In this document: in pieces, positions 9,748 to 59,870 of the stretch
Position numbering within the stretch: the first letter of the stretch is position 1
Layout: every line of letters begins with the position of its first letter
From: Candidatus Uhrbacteria bacterium
GTDB lineage: Bacteria; Patescibacteriota; Patescibacteriia; UBA9934
Length of the DNA: 64,000 bases
Assembly (NCBI GenBank): GCA_943354605.1
Contig: CALRCK010000004.1
Span: 23,584 to 87,583, forward strand
Direction of reading: 5' to 3'
Program-made: the position numbers and the translations under genes
Notes under the pieces: generated by a model
Database searches by the model: none
Told to the model about the DNA's origin: nothing
The model's input: the letters and a program-made list of their open reading frames with translations, nothing else

Positions 9748-9777
9748 ATTGACAATCCGACTTTTAGCACTCTATAC
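9748..9777 (+). promoter_or_regulatory. Sigma-70-like promoter (TTGACA-N18-TATACT) upstream of clpB
   Basis: ttgaca at 9748-9753 and tatact at 9772-9777. The -10 lies inside the CIRCE spacer. Confidence 0.6.
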
Positions 9778-9789
9778 TTGAGAGTGCTA
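9763..9789. promoter_or_regulatory. CIRCE operator (HrcA binding site)
   Basis: Perfect TTAGCACTC-N9-GAGTGCTAA (spacer tatacttga), about 240 bp upstream of the clpB start. Confidence 0.85.
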
Positions 9790-10031
9790 ATTGTCGCAAA
9801 TAGCGTTCAAAATGCGCATGCACAGCTGGCGAGATGTTTCGTTTTCGCATTTCGCGACTGTCAAGTTGACTTTACACTTCACATGCAAATTTCCCAATGT
9901 TTTTGAATGTCGGATGTCAAGTCAAATTGACACGTACAATAGCGTAAAACACACCAGGCTGCTGACGACATTCTTTGTCCTTCAGGCCCATCCAAGGTTC
10001 AGTCAGATCCTTTTCATTATCATATTTCGAT

Positions 10032-12650
10032 ATGATCCCCAACAATTTCACCAGTAAATCTCAAGAGGCCATCCAAAATGCTCAGGCGTTTTCAGAGGAG
10101 AACGGCCAGCACGGTGTGGAGCCCATCCATCTTCTTGCAGCCCTCACCCGCCAGGAAGGTGGCTTCGTCGTGACGATCTTTCAAAAGATGGCCACAAGCC
10201 TTCCTGCACTCTTGGGCGACGTGGATAGAATGTGCGATGCCTTGCCAAAACACGGCCCAGGCGAACGCGGTGGTGTTGGGCAAATCGTCCTCACCCCTTC
10301 CCTTGCACATGTCCTTGAAAATGCCGCGAAGCGATCAAAACAATTTGGTGACGAATATATTTCCACCGAGCATCTTCTCCTCGGCTTGCTTGTGGATCGG
10401 CCCATCGCCGCAATGCTCGCCGAACACCAGGTAACGGAGGAAGCAATTCTTGCCGCGCTCAAAGAACTCCGTGGCAGCCAACGTGTAGACTCACAAGATC
10501 CAGAAACAAAATACCAAGCCATCGAAAAATACAGCATGAACCTCACGGAGCGTGCTCGTCATGGAAAGCTTGATCCCGTGATTGGTCGCGATGAGGAAAT
10601 TCGGCGTGTGATGCAAGTGCTTTCGCGTCGCACCAAAAACAATCCCGTGCTCATTGGCGAAGCTGGAGTTGGAAAAACCGCAATCGTCGAAGGGCTCGCG
10701 AGCCGCATTGTTGCTGGCGACGTTCCAGAAACACTCAAGAACAAAGAAGTGGTTTCGCTTGATTTGGGATCGCTAATTGCGGGAACAAAATTCCGCGGCG
10801 AATTTGAAGAGCGCTTGAAAGCCGTCATGCGTGAAGTGTCGCAGTCCGACGGAAAATACATCTTGTTCATCGACGAGCTCCATATGCTCGTTGGTGCCGG
10901 CAAAGGCGACGAATCGCCGATGGATGCAAGTAATCTCCTCAAGCCAGCACTCGCTCGCGGCGAGCTGCGCGTGATTGGCGCAACAACCACCAAGGAATAC
11001 CAGCGCCATATTGAAAAAGATCAGGCACTTGAACGTCGGTTCCAGCCACTCATGGTGGAAGAGCCGTCGGTGGACGACGCGATTGCAATTCTTCGCGGCA
11101 TTAAAGAGCGTTACGAAATTCATCATGGCGTCCGCATCTCCGACAACGCGATTGTTGCTGCTGTCACACTTTCTGCACGCTATATTCCCGACCGCCAGTT
11201 GCCAGACAAAGCGATCGATCTCATCGACGAAGCCGCCGCAGGCCTCCGACTACAAATCGATTCCATGCCAGAAGAGCTCGACCGCATGACGCGCGAAGAA
11301 ATGCGTTTACAAATTGAACGCCAAGCACTCCTCAAAGAAGACGACAACGCGTCGAAGGAACGCTTAAAAGAAATAGAAAAGTCAATTGCGGACAGCAAAG
11401 AACGATCATCGGAACTGGCGTTGCGCTGGACGAACGAAAAGAATCTCATCGCGTCGATTCGCGAATTGAAGAGCGACATCGACAAACTTGCGAACGAAGC
11501 GGAGTACGAGGAACGCCGTGGCAACCTTGAACGCGTTGCAGAAATTCGCTACAGCGAGCTCCCCCAAAAGCGCGAGGAACTTTCTCAACGCGAAACAGAA
11601 CTGAAGCAATTCCAAACCGAACGCGGCCTACTGAAAGAAGTCATTTCCGAGGAAGACATCGCCACTGTTGTTGGCCGATGGACGCACATTCCGGTGTCGA
11701 AGATGCTCGAAAGCGACATGCAGAAACTTGCACGCATGGAAGACGAATTGCGCAAACATGTTGTTGGCCAAGACGAAGCCATCACCGCCGTCAGCAATGC
11801 GCTCCGCCGATCCCGCGCAGGATTATCGGAAGAGAAGCGCCCGATTGGCTCCTTCATTTTCCTCGGCCCAACCGGCGTAGGAAAAACCGAGCTTGCGCGA
11901 GCGCTCGCCACGTTCATGTTCAACGACGAGAAAGCCCTCGTCCGCTTGGACATGAGTGAGTACATGGAAAAGCACAGCGTGAGCAAAATGATCGGGTCTC
12001 CGCCGGGCTACATTGGCTACGAAGAAGGCGGTCAGCTTTCGGAAAAAATCCGCAAGCATCCATACTCCGTGGTGCTTCTCGACGAAATTGAGAAAGCACA
12101 CCCCGACGTCTTCAACATGCTGTTGCAGATTCTTGACGATGGAAGGCTAACGGACGCGAAGGGCCGCACCGTGAACTTCAAGAACACCATCATCATCATG
12201 ACGAGCAACATCGGGAGTGATGTCATCCTCAATAGCGGAAGAAAAATTGGCTTTGTGGAAGACGGCGACGCAAAGGCCGACGCAACACGCGAAAAGGTTC
12301 TCGATTTGCTTCGTGATCATTTCCGCCCAGAATTCTTGAACCGCATCGACGAAACCATCGTGTTCCACGCACTCGCCAAAGAGCACATCGCTGCGATTGT
12401 CGACCTTCAGTTGGCACTCGTCACCAACCGTCTCAAGGACGCCCGAAATATTGCGGTACAATTCACCGCACGCGCTAAGAAATACGTCGCGGAACACGGC
12501 TACGACCCGCTCTACGGTGCACGACCACTCAAGCGCGTCATTCAATCAAAGATTCTCGACCCTCTCGCGCTCGAAATCGTGAAGGGATCGGTTGCAGTCG
12601 ATTCTTCGGTGACTGTCGATGTGAAAAAAGATGAAATTGTGTTTGGATAA
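10032..12650 (+). CDS. clpB: Chaperone ClpB (AAA+ disaggregase)
   Basis: N-domain, two Walker A motifs (GEAGVGKT; GPTGVGKT), and a long coiled-coil middle domain between the AAA modules. Start placed at MIPNNF (ATG 10032). Confidence 0.9.
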
Positions 12651-23378: not shown

Positions 23379-25208
23379 TTAAAAATGATGCTTTTTGAGG
23401 ATCGCCTCACGCGCTTCCCGATATTTCCGTACGCGTTCTGGCTCCCATCCCAAATATTTCCAGGGGAGTCGATACATGAACGACGGCAACCACGACGACC
23501 CGATGCGCGATTCGCCATCAATCAACACATCGCACCACACGCCAGGAACAAGGACTCCGATATTGTGTTGTTCCAACATCGTGAGCCACACATCCCAATC
23601 TTGAAATCGCCGAATTGCCGGATCGAATCCCGGAAAATCCTTTCGTCGAACGAGCGATGTGGTGTGAATAAAATTCATCTTGCGTAATCGATCGCCGGAG
23701 AATGGAACGCCACGAAACACTTTCCAACCGAATTTGAATCCGCCGTACGCATAACTCGCCTCTGGGTGAACGATAAGATGCTGGACAAATGATTCAATCA
23801 TCCCCGGCTTCATCACGACATCCGCATCGCAGAACATGACGAACTCCCCTCTTGCTTCAGCGAGCCCACGGTTTCGCGCCGGATTCGCTCCAGCATTTTC
23901 CTGACGAATGACGTGGATATTCCCATCGAATTTCGCGAGAACCTCGGCGGTATTATCCGTTGAACCGTCATTAACTACGATGATCTCGATCGGTGAGTAC
24001 GTCTGACCGAGCACCGATTCAATACAGCGCCCGATGGTATTCGCGTGTTGGTAGGTTGGGATAACAACAGAGACCAACGCCGATTCGCGCATGGAAGGGG
24101 TCAGGTCGTTTATTGTCGTGTTTTGAAAAACCGACATTGTTTTTTCTCTCGTAAACTCCGCAATCACTCGCTCACGTCCGTCTCGACCAAGCTGATGACG
24201 CAGCGATTCGTCATTTGCGAGATCTACGATCGCCTTTGCAAGATCAGGAATCGTGTCATCGATGAGCAAACCGGTTCGTCCTTGAACGACCGCCTCATCA
24301 ACACCCGGCTGATTCGTAGCAATGACAGGAAGACCAAAGAGGGCGGCCTCGAGCGCAACAATACCAAATCCTTCGCGATCGTCGGTCGATTTCGTTGACG
24401 GCATCAAAAAGATGTCGTGCGTTGCGTACACTTCTGGAAGTTTTCCATCAGAGACGTGTTGCAGGATCGTTACGCGAGATTCAAGGTCGAGCGCCTTAAT
24501 CGCGTCGAGGATTTCCTTGCGCATCGGCCCGTCGCCAACAATCGTGTATGTCGAGTTCGGAATCGACTTCATCGTTTCAAGAACTTTCACATGGCCTTTC
24601 CGGGAAACAAGACGGCCGACGGTGAGTAATCTCGCCCCCCTCCGACTCCCCCCATAAATGGGGGGAGAGAATTCGCTGAGTGGCTCCCCTCCATTTACTT
24701 TTCCCCGGATGGGGATGGAGGGGCCGGGGGAGGCTTCTCGCGAGCCGACAAGAACATCTGCGGCCTCAACGAACTCATCGGCAACACACGGATACATCAC
24801 CAAACACGGTCGGTGCGCGAATGCGGTAATTTCGCTTGCGAGCGATTGCGAATTTGCGAAAACGCGACGTGCAAAAAACAACACAACCCTCATCACGAAT
24901 CGTTTTCGAGGAACCGATCGTGCGGCATCAAAATCAAGGCCGTGCAGCATGACGTCGTACGGTTTTCCCGTCATCAATCGGAATGCGAACGCTGCGGTTC
25001 CAATCGGCAACACGTGGCTCGTGAGCAAGACGTCGAAATCTTTTCGTCGATTCCAAAAGTTGCGAATCATTTCTCGGTACGCCGGAAATGATTTCCAGAT
25101 GAGCGGCGTGATCGATTCGGGAAATGTTGAAACAAGCGCAGAGCAATAGCGCGCGACTCCTCCCCGCTTTGGCGGGTAATCAGGCGTTGGAAGCAGGAAT
25201 CGCTCCAT
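23379..25208 (-). CDS. Bifunctional glycosyltransferase (N-terminal GT4 + C-terminal GT2), carrying an in-frame repeat insertion
   Basis: GT4 block (..VGRLVSRKGH..EGFGIVALEAALFGLPVIATN..) followed by a GT2 block (VSVVIPTYQHANTIGRCIESVLGQTYSPIEIIVVNDGSTDNT). The inter-domain linker carries the element-encoded peptide ..PSIPIRGKVNGGEPLSEFSPPIYGGS.. Confidence 0.7.
   Translation of the reverse strand: MERFLLPTPDYPPKRGGVARYCSALVSTFPESITPLIWKSFPAYREMIRNFWNRRKDFDVLLTSHVLPIGTAAFAFRLMTGKPYDVMLHGLDFDAARSVPRKRFVMRVVLFFARRVFANSQSLASEITAFAHRPCLVMYPCVADEFVEAADVLVGSREASPGPSIPIRGKVNGGEPLSEFSPPIYGGSRRGARLLTVGRLVSRKGHVKVLETMKSIPNSTYTIVGDGPMRKEILDAIKALDLESRVTILQHVSDGKLPEVYATHDIFLMPSTKSTDDREGFGIVALEAALFGLPVIATNQPGVDEAVVQGRTGLLIDDTIPDLAKAIVDLANDESLRHQLGRDGRERVIAEFTREKTMSVFQNTTINDLTPSMRESALVSVVIPTYQHANTIGRCIESVLGQTYSPIEIIVVNDGSTDNTAEVLAKFDGNIHVIRQENAGANPARNRGLAEARGEFVMFCDADVVMKPGMIESFVQHLIVHPEASYAYGGFKFGWKVFRGVPFSGDRLRKMNFIHTTSLVRRKDFPGFDPAIRRFQDWDVWLTMLEQHNIGVLVPGVWCDVLIDGESRIGSSWLPSFMYRLPWKYLGWEPERVRKYREAREAILKKHHF
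24635..24726. repeat. GC-rich two-module palindromic element inserted in-frame (copy 1, in the GT4-GT2 gene)
   Basis: Module A cctccgactccccccATAAATggggggagag. Module B cccctccatttacttttccccggatggggatggagggg. The host ORF stays open across it. Confidence 0.7.
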
Positions 25209-31014: not shown

Positions 31015-31135
31015 GAACGTTTCCAGTTTAGGCCAGTTTTGATGAAGATTAAGGAAAGTTTCCGAGGCGTACTTCGTGGTACGTTGAGGAAATTTCCGAA
31101 AATCTGAGTCAAAAATGGACAAACCGGGGGCGTTC
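31015..31135. repeat. About 115-bp dispersed repeat (family 3, copy 1), diverged, between rpmJ and infA
   Basis: gtttccgaggcgtacttcgtggtacgttgagg...aaaatggacaaacc aligns to the copies at 40594 and 51128. Flanked by inverted tctagaacg / cgttctaga. Confidence 0.5.
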
Positions 31136-40593: not shown

Positions 40594-40711
40594 TTCTAAA
40601 TTTAGGCGAGTTTCGGTGCGCGAGGATCACAGTTCGCGAGGCGTACTTCTCGGTACGTTGAGCGAATTTGCGACGCAGCAAGCCGAAAATAGACAAATTT
40701 AGGAGGTTTCC
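40594..40711. repeat. About 115-bp dispersed repeat (family 3, copy 2), abutting tRNA-Arg
   Basis: gtttcggtgcgcgaggatcacagttcgcgaggcgtacttctcggtacgttgagcgaatttgcgacgcagcaagccgaaaatagacaaatttaggagg. Conserved hairpin CGTAC-N6-GTACG. aaatttagg appears at both ends. Confidence 0.6.
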
Positions 40712-40788
40712 TGGTGCGTCTGGCGCGATTCGAACGCACGATCTCCTCCTTCGGAGGGAGGCGCTTTATCCAGCTAAGCTACAGACGC
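40712..40788 (-). tRNA. tRNA-Arg (anticodon CCG)
   Basis: Reverse complement reads GCGTCTGTAGCTTAGCTGGATAAAGCGCCTCCCTCCGAAGGAGGAGATCGTGCGTTCGAATCGCGCCAGACGCACCA. Cloverleaf has a 7-bp acceptor stem, anticodon loop CUCCGAA, T-loop GTTCGAATC, and an encoded CCA. Confidence 0.85.
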
Positions 40789-45940: not shown

Positions 45941-46876
45941 TCAGTCTCGATCACCCGCCAAGAATACCGTACTTTTGCGCTGCTCGACGACACCGCCATG
46001 CACAAGCCTAGAGATCAGCGAGCTGAATCGCGTTTCGTCGAGACTGGCGAGTTCCGATCGAAGACGAAGTTTCTTCAACGTCATCGGCGATTCCCGCAGC
46101 GCATCAACAATGCGACCGCGGAAATAGCGGTCGGTTTCTTCGAATCTCATTTTCTTCACTTGCCCACCTTGCCCTTTGCCCCCTACCCTCTCTTTCTTCT
46201 CTTTCGACCCGTGCAACGGTGCCAACGGACACAATCCCCAGACGTGGCCGCGGGCTGAGCAGTGCAGTGCGCCGATATCCATCAACGCATGATTCCATGT
46301 CCACACATCTCTTGGTGCGATCGATTTTGCTAAACGTTGTATCGACTTCGGATCTGACTTGTGTCGAGGGAATACTCTGCGGAAGATTCTCGAAATATTC
46401 GTATCCACCGGCGCAGCGCTCGCATTGCGAAACGCAAAGGCGGCGATAGCGTTCGCGGTGTAGTCGCCGATGCCGGGAAGTTTCTTCATCGCATCAATGT
46501 CGTTGGGCAGTTCGCCGCCGAGGTCGACCACCGATTTCGCAAGCCGATGAAGCATCACAGCGCGGCGATTGTATCCGAGCCCTTGCCACATCCGAATCAC
46601 ATCGGCCGTTGATGCATTCGCAAGATGTGCCCACGTTGGAAACGCCAAAAGAAATGCTCGCCATTTGGGAATAACGCGATCCACTTGCGTTTGCTGGAGC
46701 ATAATCTCCGAGAGCGCAATCTTGTACGGGCTCTTCGTTTTTCGCCACGGCAAATCGCGTCCATTTTTCGCGAACCACGCAAAAACAATCGCATGAAACG
46801 CATCAACGCGCCCAGCTGTAGAAATCTTTAACACTTTCGGTTTGCGTGCTAAACGCGATGTCTTTTGGTTCGTCAT
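45941..46876 (-). CDS. HhH-GPD DNA glycosylase (MutY/Nth-like) with C-terminal winged-helix-like extension
   Basis: HhH motif (LPGIGDYTANAIAAFAF), catalytic Asp region, and Cys-containing C-terminal segment. Confidence 0.65.
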   Translation of the reverse strand: MTNQKTSRLARKPKVLKISTAGRVDAFHAIVFAWFAKNGRDLPWRKTKSPYKIALSEIMLQQTQVDRVIPKWRAFLLAFPTWAHLANASTADVIRMWQGLGYNRRAVMLHRLAKSVVDLGGELPNDIDAMKKLPGIGDYTANAIAAFAFRNASAAPVDTNISRIFRRVFPRHKSDPKSIQRLAKSIAPRDVWTWNHALMDIGALHCSARGHVWGLCPLAPLHGSKEKKERVGGKGQGGQVKKMRFEETDRYFRGRIVDALRESPMTLKKLRLRSELASLDETRFSSLISRLVHGGVVEQRKSTVFLAGDRD

Positions 46877-51127: not shown

Positions 51128-51245
51128 TTTCTAATTTTCGGCCAGTTTCGGTGCGCGAGGAGCAAAGTTCGCGAGGCGTACTTTACGGTACGGTGAGCGA
51201 ATGTGCGACGATGCAAGCCGAAAATGGACAAAATTAGGAAGTTCT
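51128..51245. repeat. About 115-bp dispersed repeat (family 3, copy 3), immediately 5' of tRNA-Gln
   Basis: gtttcggtgcgcgaggagcaaagttcgcgaggcgtactttacggtacggtgagcgaatgtgcgacgatgcaagccgaaaatggacaaaattaggaag. About 85% identical to copy 2. Confidence 0.6.
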
Positions 51246-51251
51246 CAATAA

Positions 51252-51325
51252 TCCGAGATCGTCTAACGGCAGGACAACAGACTCTGAATCTGTTTATCAT
51301 GGTTCGAATCCATGTCTCGGAACCA
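51252..51325 (+). tRNA. tRNA-Gln (anticodon CUG)
   Basis: TCCGAGATCGTCTAACGGCAGGACAACAGACTCTGAATCTGTTTATCATGGTTCGAATCCATGTCTCGGAACCA. Acceptor stem TCCGAGA/TCTCGGA, anticodon loop CTCTGAA. Confidence 0.85.
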
Positions 51326-51988: not shown

Positions 51989-53659
51989 CTACGCGAGACT
52001 GCCCCCAAGTTGGCTCACGAAATCCGTCACCGCGTCGCTCGTCTCCTTCACCGGAACGTGAACCGATGTAATGGTAACGCGGTGTTGCAATACTTTCTCA
52101 ATAGCGTCTTCCACAAAGCGCTTTGCTTTAGTTTCCTTCAGTGCATCGGCATGGAATGCGTATGCGCAAGAAAGCGTCACCACTGATCCTTCAACCTTGA
52201 CTGGCACGGCGCCACGCAGCACGAGCGGCAAGGCAACATTGTTTTCGGCAACAATCGCAATACATCGCTCCCATTTATTTACGATCTCTTCGAGCGGAAA
52301 GATTGGTGCTTCGGCGGATCCCGACGGCTGATCGGCAACAGCTGATTCCATTTGCTGGATAGGCGCAAAGTCGTAGCGGATTGGTGCGTCGGGAACGGCT
52401 TGGACCTCGATGATCGGGGTAACGACGGGAGCAACAGCGACAGGCCTCCCTCCGACTCCCTCCATAAATGGAGGGAGAGATGTCGGTGAAGAGGCAGTCG
52501 ACGGCCTCCCCCCATTTACTTTTCCCCGGATGGGGATGGGGGGATTGAGGGGGGCGTGTATCGCTGCGGTCGAGCCAACCTCACATGCATCCAAAATCGC
52601 GATCTCGAGTGGGATCTGCGGAATTGCGGGCAGACTCGATCTCGTTCTCGCAGACAATAATCCGTCGAGGAATATCTGAGATCGAGAAACTCCGAACACC
52701 GATCCTGCCGCTTTCACTCGTTCGATCGTCTTTGCGTCGTATGCGTCCATCGTCGTGTCTCCGAATGCGGCGAACATCACAGTGCGAACGTATTCCAAAA
52801 GCTCTTCGATGAGATGTTTTACGGATCCTCCATCGGCCACAAACGTTCCAACGATCCTGAGCGCCTTCTGCGCATCGCTCGCGGCAACAGCGTCGACGAT
52901 GTCGGTAACGACCGCGATGTTCGTCATTGGCAATACCAACGACGCAACGGCAAGCGTGACATTTTTTTCACCGAGTGCGAGCACTTGGCCAAGCAAACTT
53001 TCCGCATCGCGTAAACAGCCCTCGCTTAAGCGCGCAATCTGCGCAAGAACGTCGTCGTCAATCGTGAACCCCTCGGCCTCCGAAATCTTCTTGAGGCGCG
53101 GCATCATGACCACTGGTGGCACGCGATGAAACTCGAACCGCTGACAACGCGATGCAATGGTTGCCGGAATTTTATGCAGCTCAGTGGTTGCGAGGATGAA
53201 GATGGCATGCGCCGGTGGTTCTTCAAGCGTTTTCAACAACGCATTGAACGACGAACCTGAGAGCATGTGGACCTCGTCGAGAATAAACACCTTAAACAAC
53301 CCGCGACTTGGCGCAAATCGCGCATTCTCAATGATGTTGTCGCGAACATTATCGACACCGGTCTGCGACGCCGCGTCGATTTCGATACACGACATAAATC
53401 GACCCGACGCAAAATCGGTACACGATGAACACGTGTTGCACGGCTCAGACTCCCCCGCCTTTCGGTTCTCGCAATTGAGTGCTTTCGCGAGCAAACGCGC
53501 GATGGTCGTTTTCCCCGTTCCGCGTGGACCAGAAAAAAGGTACGCATGTGCGACCGTATTTTTTGCCAACTGTTGCTGAATGGTTCGCAACACATGCTCC
53601 TGTTCCGCAACATCCGCAAAGCACTGTGGACGGTATTTTCGATAAAGCGTTTCGGCCAT
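51989..53659 (-). CDS. dnaX: DNA polymerase III subunit gamma/tau, carrying an in-frame repeat insertion
   Basis: AAA+ clamp-loader N-terminus (YRKYRPQCFADVAEQEHVLRTI..GPRGTGKTT), zinc module (CNTCSSC). The variable linker carries the element-encoded ..NPPIPIRGKVNGGRPSTASSPTSLPPFMEGVGGRP.. Confidence 0.85.
   Translation of the reverse strand: MAETLYRKYRPQCFADVAEQEHVLRTIQQQLAKNTVAHAYLFSGPRGTGKTTIARLLAKALNCENRKAGESEPCNTCSSCTDFASGRFMSCIEIDAASQTGVDNVRDNIIENARFAPSRGLFKVFILDEVHMLSGSSFNALLKTLEEPPAHAIFILATTELHKIPATIASRCQRFEFHRVPPVVMMPRLKKISEAEGFTIDDDVLAQIARLSEGCLRDAESLLGQVLALGEKNVTLAVASLVLPMTNIAVVTDIVDAVAASDAQKALRIVGTFVADGGSVKHLIEELLEYVRTVMFAAFGDTTMDAYDAKTIERVKAAGSVFGVSRSQIFLDGLLSARTRSSLPAIPQIPLEIAILDACEVGSTAAIHAPLNPPIPIRGKVNGGRPSTASSPTSLPPFMEGVGGRPVAVAPVVTPIIEVQAVPDAPIRYDFAPIQQMESAVADQPSGSAEAPIFPLEEIVNKWERCIAIVAENNVALPLVLRGAVPVKVEGSVVTLSCAYAFHADALKETKAKRFVEDAIEKVLQHRVTITSVHVPVKETSDAVTDFVSQLGGSLA
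52446..52545. repeat. GC-rich two-module palindromic element inserted in-frame (copy 2, in dnaX)
   Basis: Module A ctccgactccctccATAAATggagggagag. Module B ccccccatttacttttccccggatggggatgggggg. Compared with copy 1 the stem changes compensate: CCTCCat/atGGAGG in copy 1 versus CCCCCat/atGGGGG here. Confidence 0.7.
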
Positions 53660-56645: not shown

Positions 56646-58556
56646 TTATACCGCAGCGCCGTCGTCTTTCTTCTCTGTGAACTCCGCGTCTTTCGCTTCT
56701 GATCCCTGCGGAGATCCTTCGCCATGCTCAGGATGACTCGAGTTCTTCGCCGCGTCGTCCTTGGCGTACATTGCACCGCCAACACGCTGTGCTTCCTTGG
56801 AAAGGTCGTCACCCGCAGCCTTGATAGCCGCAAGATCGTCGGTGTCTTTCACTTTCTTTACCGCCTCCATCTTTTCCTCGAGGATCTTCTTATCTTCTTC
56901 AGAAACTTTGTCCTTATTGTCCGCCAACATCTTTTCCACGGTGTACACCATGGTATCCGCAATGTTGCGAGCCTCGATGAGTTCCTGCTTCTGCTTGTCC
57001 TCGGTGGCGTGGCTTTCTGCATCAGCCTTCATCTTTTCGATTTCTTCCTTCGAGAGACCGCTCGACGACGTGATCGTAATCGTCTGCGCCTTGTTCGTCG
57101 CCTTGTCGGTTGCGGAAACGTGCAAGATTCCGTTTGCGTCGATGTCGAACTTCACCTCGATCTGCGGCACGCCACGAGGTGCTGGTGGAATACCGGAGAG
57201 ATCAAACTGGCCGAGCACCTTGTTGTCGTTAAACATTGGGCGCTCGCCCTGGCCAACGCGAATCGTCACCGCTGGCTGGTTGTCGGCAGCAGTTGAGAAT
57301 ACCTGCGATTTGCTGGTCGGGATCGTCGTGTTGCGATCAATCAGCTTCGTGAACACGCTTCCCATGGTTTCGATTCCGAGAGAAAGAGGAGCAACGTCGA
57401 GGAGCAAAACGTCCTTCACGTCGCCCTGCATCACACCGGCCTGTACTGCAGCACCAACGGCAACCACTTCGTCTGGGTTCACGGTGACGTTTGGCTTTTT
57501 GCCAAAGAATGCTTCAACCTTTGTCAGCACCAGTGGCATGCGAGTCATACCTCCCACCATGACGATTTCGCCGATGTTCTTCGCGTCCATCTTTGCATCC
57601 GCAAGGGCCTTCTTCACTGGCTCCATGGTCTTATCGACCAATCCGCCGACGAGTTCCTCCAGCTTTGCGCGAGAAAGGGTCATCACCAAGTGCTTTGGTC
57701 CTTCAGCACCAGACGTGATGAATGGTTGGTTGATTTCTGTTGTCTGGGCGGTCGACAATTCAATCTTCGCGCGCTCTGCAGCATCCTTAATACGCTGCAT
57801 CGCCAATGCGTCGCCAGAAAGATCGATTCCCTCGAGCTTCTTAAACTCGTCGAGGATCCATTTCATGATAGTCAAATCGAAATCATCTCCACCAAGGTGT
57901 GTGTCACCATTCGTCGCCAATACCTCTACCGTGCCTTCAGAAACGTCGAGCACAGACACGTCGAACGTTCCACCGCCGAGATCGTACACCACAATTTTCT
58001 GACCAACTTTCTTATCAAAACCATACGCAAGCGCAGCAGCCGTTGGTTCGTTGATGATGCGCAAAACTTTCAATCCAGCGATCTCACCGGCATCTTTCGT
58101 TGCCTGACGTTGCGCGTCGTCGAAGTACGCAGGAACGGTAATCACGGCTTCTGAAATCTTTTCACCGGTCTTCTCCTCCGCATCAGCTTTGATTTTGCTC
58201 AACACCATTGCCGAAATTTCCTGTGGCGAGAAATCCTTCTCACCCATCTTGATCGCCACTCCCTCGCCACGAGCGACGATAGAGAACGGCATGAGCTTGA
58301 TGTCGCGCTGAACTTCCTCATCACTAAACCGACGACCGATAAGGCGCTTGATCGAATACAACGTATTCTTCGGGTTCGTCACCGCCTGTCGCTTTGCCGG
58401 CTGACCCACAAGGCGCTCCCCATTCTTCGCAACCGCGATGATGGACGGCGTTGTGCGCATTCCCTCCTTATTCTCCAAAACCTTCGGCTGTCCGCCTTCC
58501 ATAATTGCCACGCACGAATTTGTCGTCCCTAAATCGATTCCAAGGATCTTTGACAT
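56646..58556 (-). CDS. dnaK: Chaperone DnaK (Hsp70)
   Basis: Motifs IDLGTTNS and DLGGGTFD. 636 aa. Confidence 0.95.
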
Positions 58557-58559
58557 AGA

Positions 58560-59126
58560 TTATTCATTAACAATTACTTTTGCAGGACGCAGAACAACGT
58601 CACCAATCTTCCATCCCTTGATCAGTTCTTCCACGATCTCGTGTTCTTTCTTTCCGGGCTCCGATCGGGAGCCGCCACTCTCGTGGAGATTTGGATCGAA
58701 GATGGTGCCGACGCTCGGAATCGGTTCAACTCCCATGTTCTTCATTGCTTCGGCGAACTGGCGCTCAATGTGGCCGATGCCTTGGAACCAGGTGTCGAAC
58801 TTTTTCTTGAACTCTTCCGAACACTCGCTGATGTCGGGAACGTGTTTGGTGACGTAGCCGAAGTTGTCGACGACGGGGAGTAGATCCTCTGCGAGATTCG
58901 ATCGAACTCGGCGGCGATCGTCGTCGCGGGCGCTGGAGTTTTGCTTTTGCAGATTTTCGTAATCCGCGAGAGCGCGCTTCCAGCCGGAGAGGTATTCGGC
59001 GCATTTCGTCTGAAGGGCGTGGAGGTCGGAAGCTGCCGCATCGGGCTCAGGCCCCCCTCCGACTCCCCCCATAAATGGAGGGAGAGGTGTCTCCTGATCT
59101 GGTCCGTTCTTTTCTTCGTCCGTCAT
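58560..59126 (-). CDS. grpE: Nucleotide exchange factor GrpE, carrying an in-frame half-element insertion in its N-terminal tail
   Basis: GrpE coiled coil and C-terminal beta-domain (..DNFGYVTKHV..GWKIGDVVLRPAKVIVN). The N-terminal tail reads ..QETPLPPFMGGVGGGPEPD.., encoded by the repeat. Confidence 0.85.
   Translation of the reverse strand: MTDEEKNGPDQETPLPPFMGGVGGGPEPDAAASDLHALQTKCAEYLSGWKRALADYENLQKQNSSARDDDRRRVRSNLAEDLLPVVDNFGYVTKHVPDISECSEEFKKKFDTWFQGIGHIERQFAEAMKNMGVEPIPSVGTIFDPNLHESGGSRSEPGKKEHEIVEELIKGWKIGDVVLRPAKVIVNE
59051..59086. repeat. GC-rich palindromic element, module A only (copy 3, in grpE)
   Basis: gcccccctccgactccccccATAAATggagggagag. Same orientation as copies 1 and 2. 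Confidence 0.65.
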
Positions 59127-59843: not shown

Positions 59844-59870
59844 TTAGCACTCAATAGTATAGAGTGCTAA
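59844..59870. promoter_or_regulatory. CIRCE operator (HrcA binding site) of the hrcA-grpE-dnaK operon
   Basis: Perfect TTAGCACTC-N9-GAGTGCTAA (spacer aatagtata), 20 bp upstream of the hrcA start. Confidence 0.9.

Follow-up and report, generated by a model that had tools for sequence, protein, structure and literature searches.

We analysed a 64,000-nt stretch of a Candidatus Uhrbacteria genome (phylum Patescibacteriota; contig CALRCK010000004.1, positions 23,584 to 87,583; hereafter, the window), in which a short palindromic element recurs within three unrelated genes. The hosts are a GT4-GT2 fusion glycosyltransferase gene (hereafter, GT), dnaX and grpE, all of them long minus-strand open reading frames (ORFs) that stay open across the insert. 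The set in the window comprises two doublets, in GT and dnaX, and one solo arm in grpE (Table 1). Each doublet spans about 101-112 nt with its flanks and consists of two arms of about 36 nt (arm A and arm B), inverted relative to each other around a spacer of 15 or 26 nt. The original prediction, that a repeated palindromic element sits in frame at tolerant sites of unrelated genes, held up in the exact matches, the open ORFs and the orthologs without insert, and the minus-strand location of all copies and the peptides quoted for them agreed with the ORF translations.

A pattern scan of the window recovered arm A (CTCCGACTCCCYCCATAAATGGRGGGAGAG) three times and the arm B core (CCATTTACTTTTCCCCGGATGGGGATGG) twice as exact matches, and each pattern had 0 matches in 100 dinucleotide-preserving shuffles. 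No further arm copies were found in the window by a looser regular expression, a hairpin scan or nhmmer. In both window doublets, arm B is an inverted arm A with an 18-nt nested hairpin in its loop, while a plain arm B without the nested hairpin is found in relatives (for example, ...TCCCCTCCATTTATGGAGGGGCTGGGGGAGGC in L007, a doublet from an Uhrbacteria metagenome-assembled genome (MAG)). The sharing of the same nested hairpin indicates that both window doublets came from one sub-lineage in this genome. Folding of the doublet hairpins gave z-scores of -3.3 and -4.6, and the search of the window against Rfam at the gathering threshold returned nothing but two tRNAs, with no known RNA family matching at the elements.

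In each arm, a C-rich stem and a G-rich stem are separated by a loop of 4-6 nt, and a 3-nt loop joins the G-rich stem to a further G-rich block, its mirror image; on the purine (minus) strand, arm A reads CTCCCCCC-ATTTAT-GGGGGGAG-TCG-GAGGGGGG. The earlier description as a two-module palindrome was right in that both arms are hairpins, but overlooked this third, mirror-repeat block. The triplex motif has been defined as a C-stem, N3-6, a G-stem, N3 and a second G-stem, with stems of 6-15 nt and at most one mismatch, the second G block being a mirror repeat that can serve as the third strand (Holder et al. 2015, PMC4666352). The window arms, and a set of 27 arms from the window and its relatives compiled for the analysis of covariation, have the three blocks that characterize the BoxC/PIT/TMECO family of E. 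coli. In this set, 91.8% of the stem cells were paired, double-sided stem changes occurred in 24 cells (vs 9.0 +/- 2.9 in shuffles), and the outer block mirrored the stem at 6/7 to 8/8 positions per arm. The T positions were mirrored in every subfamily variant, the one exception being a point mutation in L007_L. Stem and outer block varied together in five pairs, that is, CTCCCCCC/CCCCCCTC, CTCCCTCC/CCTCCCTC, CCCCCTCC/CCTCCCCC, CCCCTCC/CCTCCCC and TCCCCCC/CCCCCCT, and at the dnaX site of L026 the loops of the two arms (ATGGCT and AGCCAT) are mutually reverse-complementary. Judged from the aligned arms, this three-way covariation of the blocks is the signature of an intrastrand triplex motif, and the arm DNA may form a hairpin or triplex in vivo.

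The insert in GT lies between the Glyco_transf_4 (31-142) and Glycos_transf_1 (193-347) domains, at the GT-B hinge that joins GT4's two Rossmann halves. Its original assignment to the GT4/GT2 linker (348-379) was incorrect. The AlphaFold model has a predicted local distance difference test score below 50 and no secondary structure at residues 159-189, and the insertion site is accordingly predicted to be disordered. Another GT4, in an Uhrbacteria MAG, has an arm at the equivalent hinge. The inserts in DnaX and GrpE likewise lie outside the Pfam domains (Table 1).

Comparison with orthologs showed that the insert is a polymorphism, as had been anticipated: it is missing in 16/16 GT, 10/25 DnaX and 4/5 GrpE proteins. 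The GT orthologs (61-85% identity) are without about 30 residues exactly at the element site, and filled and empty GT sites were also compared at the DNA level, where no target-site duplication was evident. Among the 25 aligned DnaX orthologs, those with an empty linker are 80-91% identical, the two closest loci (P0002 and P0003) have a doublet at the same site, and three (P0006, P0012 and P0013) have variant arms there. For GrpE, arm A is present in the window only, a variant is found in L031, and L025, L027, L029 and L030 have no arm. The HhH-GPD glycosylase gene shows the reversed case, with an arm in L029 and in H41-bin182_1 (hereafter, H41; the nearest relative of the window organism, with DnaX 87-89% identical), and at most a G-rich remnant in the window. 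At that position, where the two relatives have the arm SLPPFMGGVGGG, the window has the G-rich GAGAGGGTAGGGGGCAAAGGGCAAGGTGGG, encoding ERVGGKGQGG, which may be a decayed remnant of the 3' half of the arm. The arm of L029 in this gene has lost its stem complementarity (ATAACTGGGTGG), which argues for neutral decay after insertion and against host-level selection on structure; selection more likely acts at the level of the element than of the host. The compensatory stem changes pointed out in the original prediction were borne out by the 27-arm set, and the selection on secondary structure that it had drawn from them need not be selection by the host.

Exact-motif scans of genome and metagenome collections, along the lines the original prediction had proposed, found the family in two Patescibacteria MAGs (H41 and Candidatus Uhrbacteria TrH-25oct19-208) and in groundwater metagenomes. 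The remaining matches were to untyped environmental contigs, a single contig binned to Caulobacteraceae and a single eukaryotic rDNA contig; none was from Rickettsia, and a motif scan of viral contigs gave no matches. The host genes in relatives encode MiaA, RadA, RarA/MgsA, a Wzy_C membrane protein, HhH-GPD and another GT4. Nearly all copies in relatives are inside ORFs, with one intergenic (in L031). These copies are on both strands and are read in four frames (SPPIYGGS, LPPFMGGV, LSPHLWGES and TPPINGGR), so that selection on the peptide is excluded and a function at the peptide level was rejected; the single orientation noted in the original prediction holds within the window and not among relatives. 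The window doublets are open in 3/6 frames, as random 108-nt pieces of the window typically are, and only the 38-nt solo arm is open in 5/6. A design free of stop codons was thus rejected, and the open frames of the hosts reflect survivorship.

A homologous two-arm element was also found on contigs of the Ga0302240 sample. Four of them (L011, L018, L019 and L023) have apparently intergenic tandem arrays that repeat about every 104 nt, with the unit GACCCCCCTCTGA-CTCCCCCCATAAATGGGGGGAG ... CCCTCCCCATTTATGGGGAGGG-CCA/TTA-GGGAGGGGTC; these contigs have a G+C content of 62-66% (vs about 52% in the window) and do not resemble Patescibacteria. On a fifth contig of this sample (L022), a single arm abuts a pseudogene of the DUF559 endonuclease family. 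As a separate observation, the CTCCCCCCATAAATGGGGGGAG hairpin with C- and G-rich flanks is also present in a bacterial 23S rRNA gene fragment (L020; Rfam LSU, 1062 bits), which exceeds the span of the model that it covers by about 53 nt and, by lengths alone, fits an insertion at the hairpin.

In relatives of the window organism, the arms bound DUF559 genes. An Uhrbacteria MAG (L009) has a 129-codon DUF559 ORF (PF04480, E=8e-36) between an arm A and an arm B that are arranged around it as in the doublets. H41 has a DUF559 cassette of 456 bp (L035) with perfect 35-nt inverted repeats (AAGCCCCCTCCGACTCCCCCATAAATGGGGGAGAG) that match arm A of the window at E=2e-10, and L036 has the same plan of arm, DUF559 and arm. 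The sequence TATGATC is found on both sides of the L035 cassette, and may reflect either duplication of the target or a doubled stop/start overlap. An empty site for the H41 cassette was looked for in the window, in which that locus is absent. A homolog search with the DUF559 core alone carried no bias toward the arms. The closest homologs (53-100% identity) all carry arm-derived terminal peptides (10/10), with APSxSPINGG at the N terminus and SPSIYGGARGG or SPPFMGESEG at the C terminus; a crude signature of such terminal peptides was detected in 16/120 DUF559 homologs and in about 2% of control segments, which is suggestive and not rigorous.

An exhaustive profile-free search revealed embedded DUF559 domains. 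In a SpoU methylase, the two parts are separated in frame by SSSPINGGG-DUF559-SPSIYGGARGG, which belongs to the window's own family, and other in-frame hosts with bracketing G/P-rich peptides are HsdM, HsdR, HsdS and Eco57I-like enzymes, with their Pfam domains split. As a side observation, the embedded domains behave like inteins without a splicing domain. The DUF559 family, with more than 23,000 cluster representatives, is structurally endonuclease-like (PDB 3HRL) and has been placed in one group with Vsr and I-Bth0305I, an EDxHD homing endonuclease (PMC3424549). It is also 14-fold enriched among predicted targets of programmed inversion (PMC9881135), which is what flanking inverted repeats would produce.

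Table 1. Positions of the host genes, the arms and spacers, the DUF559 loci, and other repeats and features of the window and related loci. Positions are those of the window unless a locus is named.
Feature	Position	Strand	Sequence	Basis or remark
Host gene 1, GT4-GT2 fusion glycosyltransferase	23379..25208	minus		Pfam; insert at aa ~155-192
GT doublet with flanks	24634-24734
GT doublet, arm A	24634..24669		GCCCCCCTC-CGA-CTCCCCCC-ATAAAT-GGGGGGAG-AG	exact pattern match at 24640-24669; nhmmer E=1e-14; three-block parse; purine-type three-block motif readable on minus strand
GT doublet, spacer (15 nt)	24670..24684		AATTCGCTGAGTGGC	resembles spacer of L007 doublet (Uhrbacteria MAG)
GT doublet, arm B	24685..24734		TCCCCTCC-loop-GGAGGGG-CCG-GGGGAGGC	inverted arm; pattern match (core exact at 24691-24718); repeat family D7
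GT arm B, nested hairpin (18 nt)	24698-24715		CTTTTCCCCGGATGGGGA	in loop
Host gene 2, dnaX (tau/gamma)	51989..53659	minus		Pfam; insert at aa ~370-405, past domain III (249-360)
dnaX doublet with flanks	52444-52555
dnaX doublet, arm A	52444..52479		GCCTCCCTC-CGA-CTCCCTCC-ATAAAT-GGAGGGAG-AG	exact pattern match at 52450-52479; nhmmer; three-block parse; T/A variant mirrored across all three blocks
dnaX doublet, spacer (26 nt)	52480..52505
dnaX doublet, arm B	52506..52555		outer block GAGGGGGGC	pattern match (core exact at 52512-52539); nhmmer match 52555-52506
dnaX arm B, nested hairpin	52519-52536
Host gene 3, grpE	58560..59126	minus		Pfam; insert at aa ~14-25, before GrpE domain (31-187)
Solo arm A, grpE 5' region	59051..59086		GCCCCCCTCCGACTCCCCCCATAAATGGAGGGAGAG	exact pattern match at 59057-59086; nhmmer; one plus-strand C/A mismatch, a G-U pair in mRNA
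HhH-GPD gene	45944-46702
HhH-GPD gene, G-rich stretch	~46135-46207	minus	GAGAGGGTAGGGGGCAAAGGGCAAGGTGGG	possible remnant
DUF559 ORF between arms, Uhrbacteria MAG	L009 2228-2700
DUF559 cassette, H41-bin182_1	L035 6008-6463
DUF559 cassette	L036 ~1263-1700
Motifs near ycjD, E. coli K-12	L037 16204-16242, 16396-16422			E. coli K-12 1351203-1351241, 1351395-1351421
Intergenic copy	L031 ~217-289
Hairpin in 23S rRNA gene fragment	L020 613-666		CTCCCCCCATAAATGGGGGGAG
dnaX site with replaced arm B half	L025 ~11110-11170
Second repeat, three copies	31020-31134, 40594-40708, 51129-51243		GAGAACnTTCTAAnTTTAGGCCAGTTT ... AAAATGGACAAAnTTAGGAnGTTCTC	terminal inverted repeats
tRNA gene adjoining second repeat	40715-40788	minus
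tRNA gene adjoining second repeat	51252-51322	plus
DnaK C-terminal tail, other hairpin family	~56712-56738	minus	GTCATCCTGAGCATGGCGAAGGATCTC
CIRCE-type operators	59844-59870, 9764-9790		TTAGCACTC-N9-GAGTGCTAA

The proteins with an embedded DUF559 domain are P0364, P0384, P0381, P0390, P0397, P0419, P0376 and P0362.

We consider it fairly probable that the window copies belong to a selfish DUF559 cassette family, as miniature or decayed forms that lack the gene and are tolerated in disordered loops. The full-length form would consist of two inverted triplex-motif arms bounding a cassette of about 450 bp that encodes DUF559, a Vsr-like PD-(D/E)xK nuclease. [quoted passage not shown] The repeat identity, the insertion polymorphism, the three-block covariation, the arms flanking DUF559 and the disordered site in GT are supported directly; DUF559 as the mobilising nuclease, a hairpin or triplex in vivo and the route of insertion are inferred.

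Several points weigh against this interpretation. There is no DUF559 gene in the 64-kb window, and an autonomous partner in this organism is accordingly hypothetical. Neither the window copies nor those of relatives have a consistent target-site duplication, TATGATC at L035 being the only candidate. To our knowledge, a lone PD-(D/E)xK nuclease of about 130 aa is no known transposase type. The loci of relatives were fetched via the motif itself, which biases the census, and triplex formation is deduced from sequence alone. In two cases from outside the Patescibacteria, DUF559 is beside the arms and not between them. One is L022, and the other is the DUF559 gene ycjD of E. coli K-12, where BoxC/TMECO #9 lies 168 nt downstream and the stop codon is overlapped by a partial TMECO; we treat this adjacency only as a lead. 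The spacers of the window doublets also differ (15 vs 26 nt) despite near-identical arms, which fits independent decay or gene conversion better than the copying of one MITE master. Within the cassette-family interpretation, this tends to favour relics of cassettes without the nuclease gene, or gene conversion, over mobilisation in trans. A separate observation at the dnaX site of L025 is that the 5' half of arm B is replaced by a segment encoding SSPNSGSSSAINGG, and a near-identical variant (SSPGSGSSGAINGG) flanks a DUF559 gene in another genome (protein P0242), which suggests arm replacement by gene conversion among family members.

Selection of the element by the host is unlikely, whether as a regulatory DNA or RNA structure or as a peptide, for example, for pausing of ribosome or polymerase between domains, as a protein-binding site or for recoding of dnaX. 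Such a role would be in keeping with the retention of stems and third block via compensatory changes, with the location of the elements at domain boundaries, and with the polymerase stops caused by TMECO-type motifs in vitro (PMC4666352). However, close orthologs work without the element, strand and frame vary such that neither one peptide nor one RNA is conserved, and the orthologous copy of L029 is gathering stem mismatches. The nested hairpin is common to the GT and dnaX copies, and is thus not gene-specific. Recoding of dnaX was considered for the G GGA AAA heptamer in the nested hairpin and rejected, as the -1 frame runs on without a nearby stop and GT carries the same insert.

We regard as quite unlikely an ordinary MITE that is moved by a DDE-type insertion sequence with the same terminal inverted repeats, with DUF559 as passenger cargo. 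The loci that were read have no transposase gene between or adjoining any arm pair, the lack of a consistent target-site duplication counts here as well, and self-folding three-block mirror arms are atypical of DDE ends. The presence of arms on all of the ten nearest DUF559 homologs is also too regular for random cargo. What speaks for a DDE-type MITE are the terminal inverted repeats of about 35 nt, the small size, the occurrence in both orientations, the presence/absence polymorphism and the candidate 7-nt direct repeat around the L035 cassette.

A classical system of repetitive extragenic palindromes (REPs), with the arm as REP hairpin and the doublet as REPIN, moved by a single-copy RAYT (IS200/IS605-type) through single-stranded hairpins, is decidedly unlikely. 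The combination of doublet and singlets, with two inverted palindromic units and a spacer, fits the REPIN description (PMC3337134), intragenic REPs are documented, including in genes of DNA replication and repair (PMC3733652), and GGGGAGAG in the arm fits the GGGGWSAS motif of TIRYT inverted repeats. Yet the arm alignment has no GTAG/CTAC or CGTC/GACG tag (as defined in PMC3733652) at the arm ends, and tblastn of the window and about 250 kb of related loci gave no match for a Y1/RAYT-like protein. The sole Y1 gene seen (L017) has unrelated inverted repeats, and the gene between the arms is DUF559, not a Y1 transposase. Of the resemblances to Rickettsia palindromic elements (RPEs) or REP/MITE elements that had been suggested, the RPE-like behaviour stands and the relationship to REPs does not.

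It is scarcely credible that the copies arose in assembly or binning, for example, at a chimeric junction. The data are metagenomic and hairpins with G/C runs are difficult to sequence, but the grpE copy is present both in the 89.5-kb metagenome contig from which the window comes (ENA ERZ27280315) and in an independent Logan assembly, which makes an artefact very unlikely, including the assembly chimera that the original prediction had named as one possible refutation. The grpE and dnaX contexts are identical in independent assemblies, orthologous filled sites are found in other samples (L025, L026, L008 and L029), family members occur in MAGs of other studies, and the reading frame is kept at all three sites.

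Other hairpin families were observed in the same proteins and clade. The C-terminal tail of DnaK in the window has a hairpin of the GTCATCCTGAGCATGGCGAAGGATCTC family in frame, encoding SHPEHGEGS, and the N-terminal tails of GrpE in L027, L029 and L030 contain this family as well as a third (ATCCCCGCGCAGGCGGGGAT, encoding SGHPRAGGDPS). Some orthologs have peptides such as VIPAQAGIH and VIPSVGEES in their DnaX and GT4-GT2 linkers, which at the peptide level suggest further hairpin families. It thus appears that several families colonise protein linkers in this clade. The window also has three copies of a second, unrelated repeat of about 115-125 nt (65-88% identity) with terminal inverted repeats, an internal GTAC hairpin and no Rfam match, two of which directly adjoin tRNA genes; the repeat resembles a MITE or a small structured RNA. 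Two CIRCE-type operators were found, one of them upstream of hrcA-grpE-dnaK, and reflect ordinary heat-shock regulation.

A broader proposal, which we put forward tentatively and hold to be possible though doubtful, is that DUF559 is the missing mobilising or homing enzyme of BoxC/PIT/triplex-motif repeats across bacteria, and that the cassettes are an unrecognised selfish class. Cassettes of the form arm-DUF559-arm would live in frame in host genes without an intron or intein for removal, and would leave gene-less doublets and solo arms in dnaX, grpE and GT, and possibly the BoxC/TMECO copies of E. coli. BoxC/PIT/TMECO repeats, familiar since the 1990s, are not known to have a source, a function or a mobility mechanism, and DUF559 has no assigned role. 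The arms, as perfect inverted repeats at DUF559 genes, join these two orphans into one testable question, namely, whether DUF559 binds or cuts the arms. In the literature searched there was no mention of Patescibacteria together with MITEs, palindromic or selfish elements, and DUF559 was nowhere linked to BoxC-type repeats. In-frame palindromic repeats (PMC3733652) and triplex-motif repeats (PMC4666352) are already known; new here are the host phylum, the residence in coding sequence and the candidate partner nuclease. As in Rickettsia, selfish DNA resides within the coding sequence of replication and chaperone genes even in episymbiont genomes of about 1 Mb. The inserts are lineage-specific G/P-rich loops that may confuse orthology calls, domain annotation and structure prediction, and are usable as strain-level markers.

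Among known systems, the BoxC/PIT/TMECO family of E. coli comprises 23 copies, five sites having inverted pairs whose members differ in the 3-nt loop; the copies are reported to be all intergenic, to be confined to Proteobacteria and to have no mobility genes nearby (PMC4666352, which also cites the earlier BoxC and the Hoyne/Maher PIT elements). The window family likewise has single copies and inverted pairs that differ in the 3-nt loop, and well-conserved scattered copies that vary in number among close relatives. It does not match the TMECO consensus (CCCTCNCCC-N3-6-GGGNGAGGG-N3-GGGNGAGGG), as the window arms have CTCCCCCC/GGGGGGAG and CCCCTCC/GGAGGGG, while distant metagenome relatives grade toward it (arm B of L014 is CCCCTCGCC..GGAGAAGGG-CCA-GGGGTGAGG). 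Unlike the intergenic TMECO copies, the window arms interrupt essential genes of a Patescibacterium without breaking the frame, and in relatives they bound DUF559 genes; the third blocks face inward in the E. coli pairs and outward in the window family.

The resemblance to RPEs and intragenic REPs (PMC3733652) is one of behaviour only, with no sequence relationship. In both, a bacterium with a reduced genome has short palindromes in frame in unrelated and often essential genes, those of DNA replication and repair included, and the inserts are translated as extra peptide loops that are absent from orthologs. RPE-4 and RPE-6 have the CGTC tag and no link to a nuclease gene, whereas the window element has the mirror third block and a full form bearing DUF559. 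As in REPIN-RAYT systems, there is a doublet of inverted palindromic units with a spacer, the singlets resemble decayed remnants, and the repeats flank one small nuclease-type gene. In contrast to these systems, there is no GTAG tag, no Y1/HUH transposase was found in the window and related loci, and the flanked gene is a PD-(D/E)xK DUF559.

With inverted terminal arms of about 35 nt and doublets of 101-112 nt, well below about 500 bp, the element has the form of a MITE, and the longer elements with the same ends (L009, L035 and L036) encode DUF559, not an established transposase. Unlike homing genes, the window family has no intron or intein that would take the insert out, its insertion sites are many and unrelated and not a single cognate one, and its cassettes end in structured inverted repeats. 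Like EDxHD/Vsr-like homing endonucleases such as I-Bth0305I (PMC3424549), however, the cassette is a small Vsr-fold nuclease gene that forms a selfish insert, with full cassettes in frame in SpoU, HsdM, HsdR, HsdS and Eco57I-like genes, and a homing cycle in its decay stage could account for the gene-less doublets.

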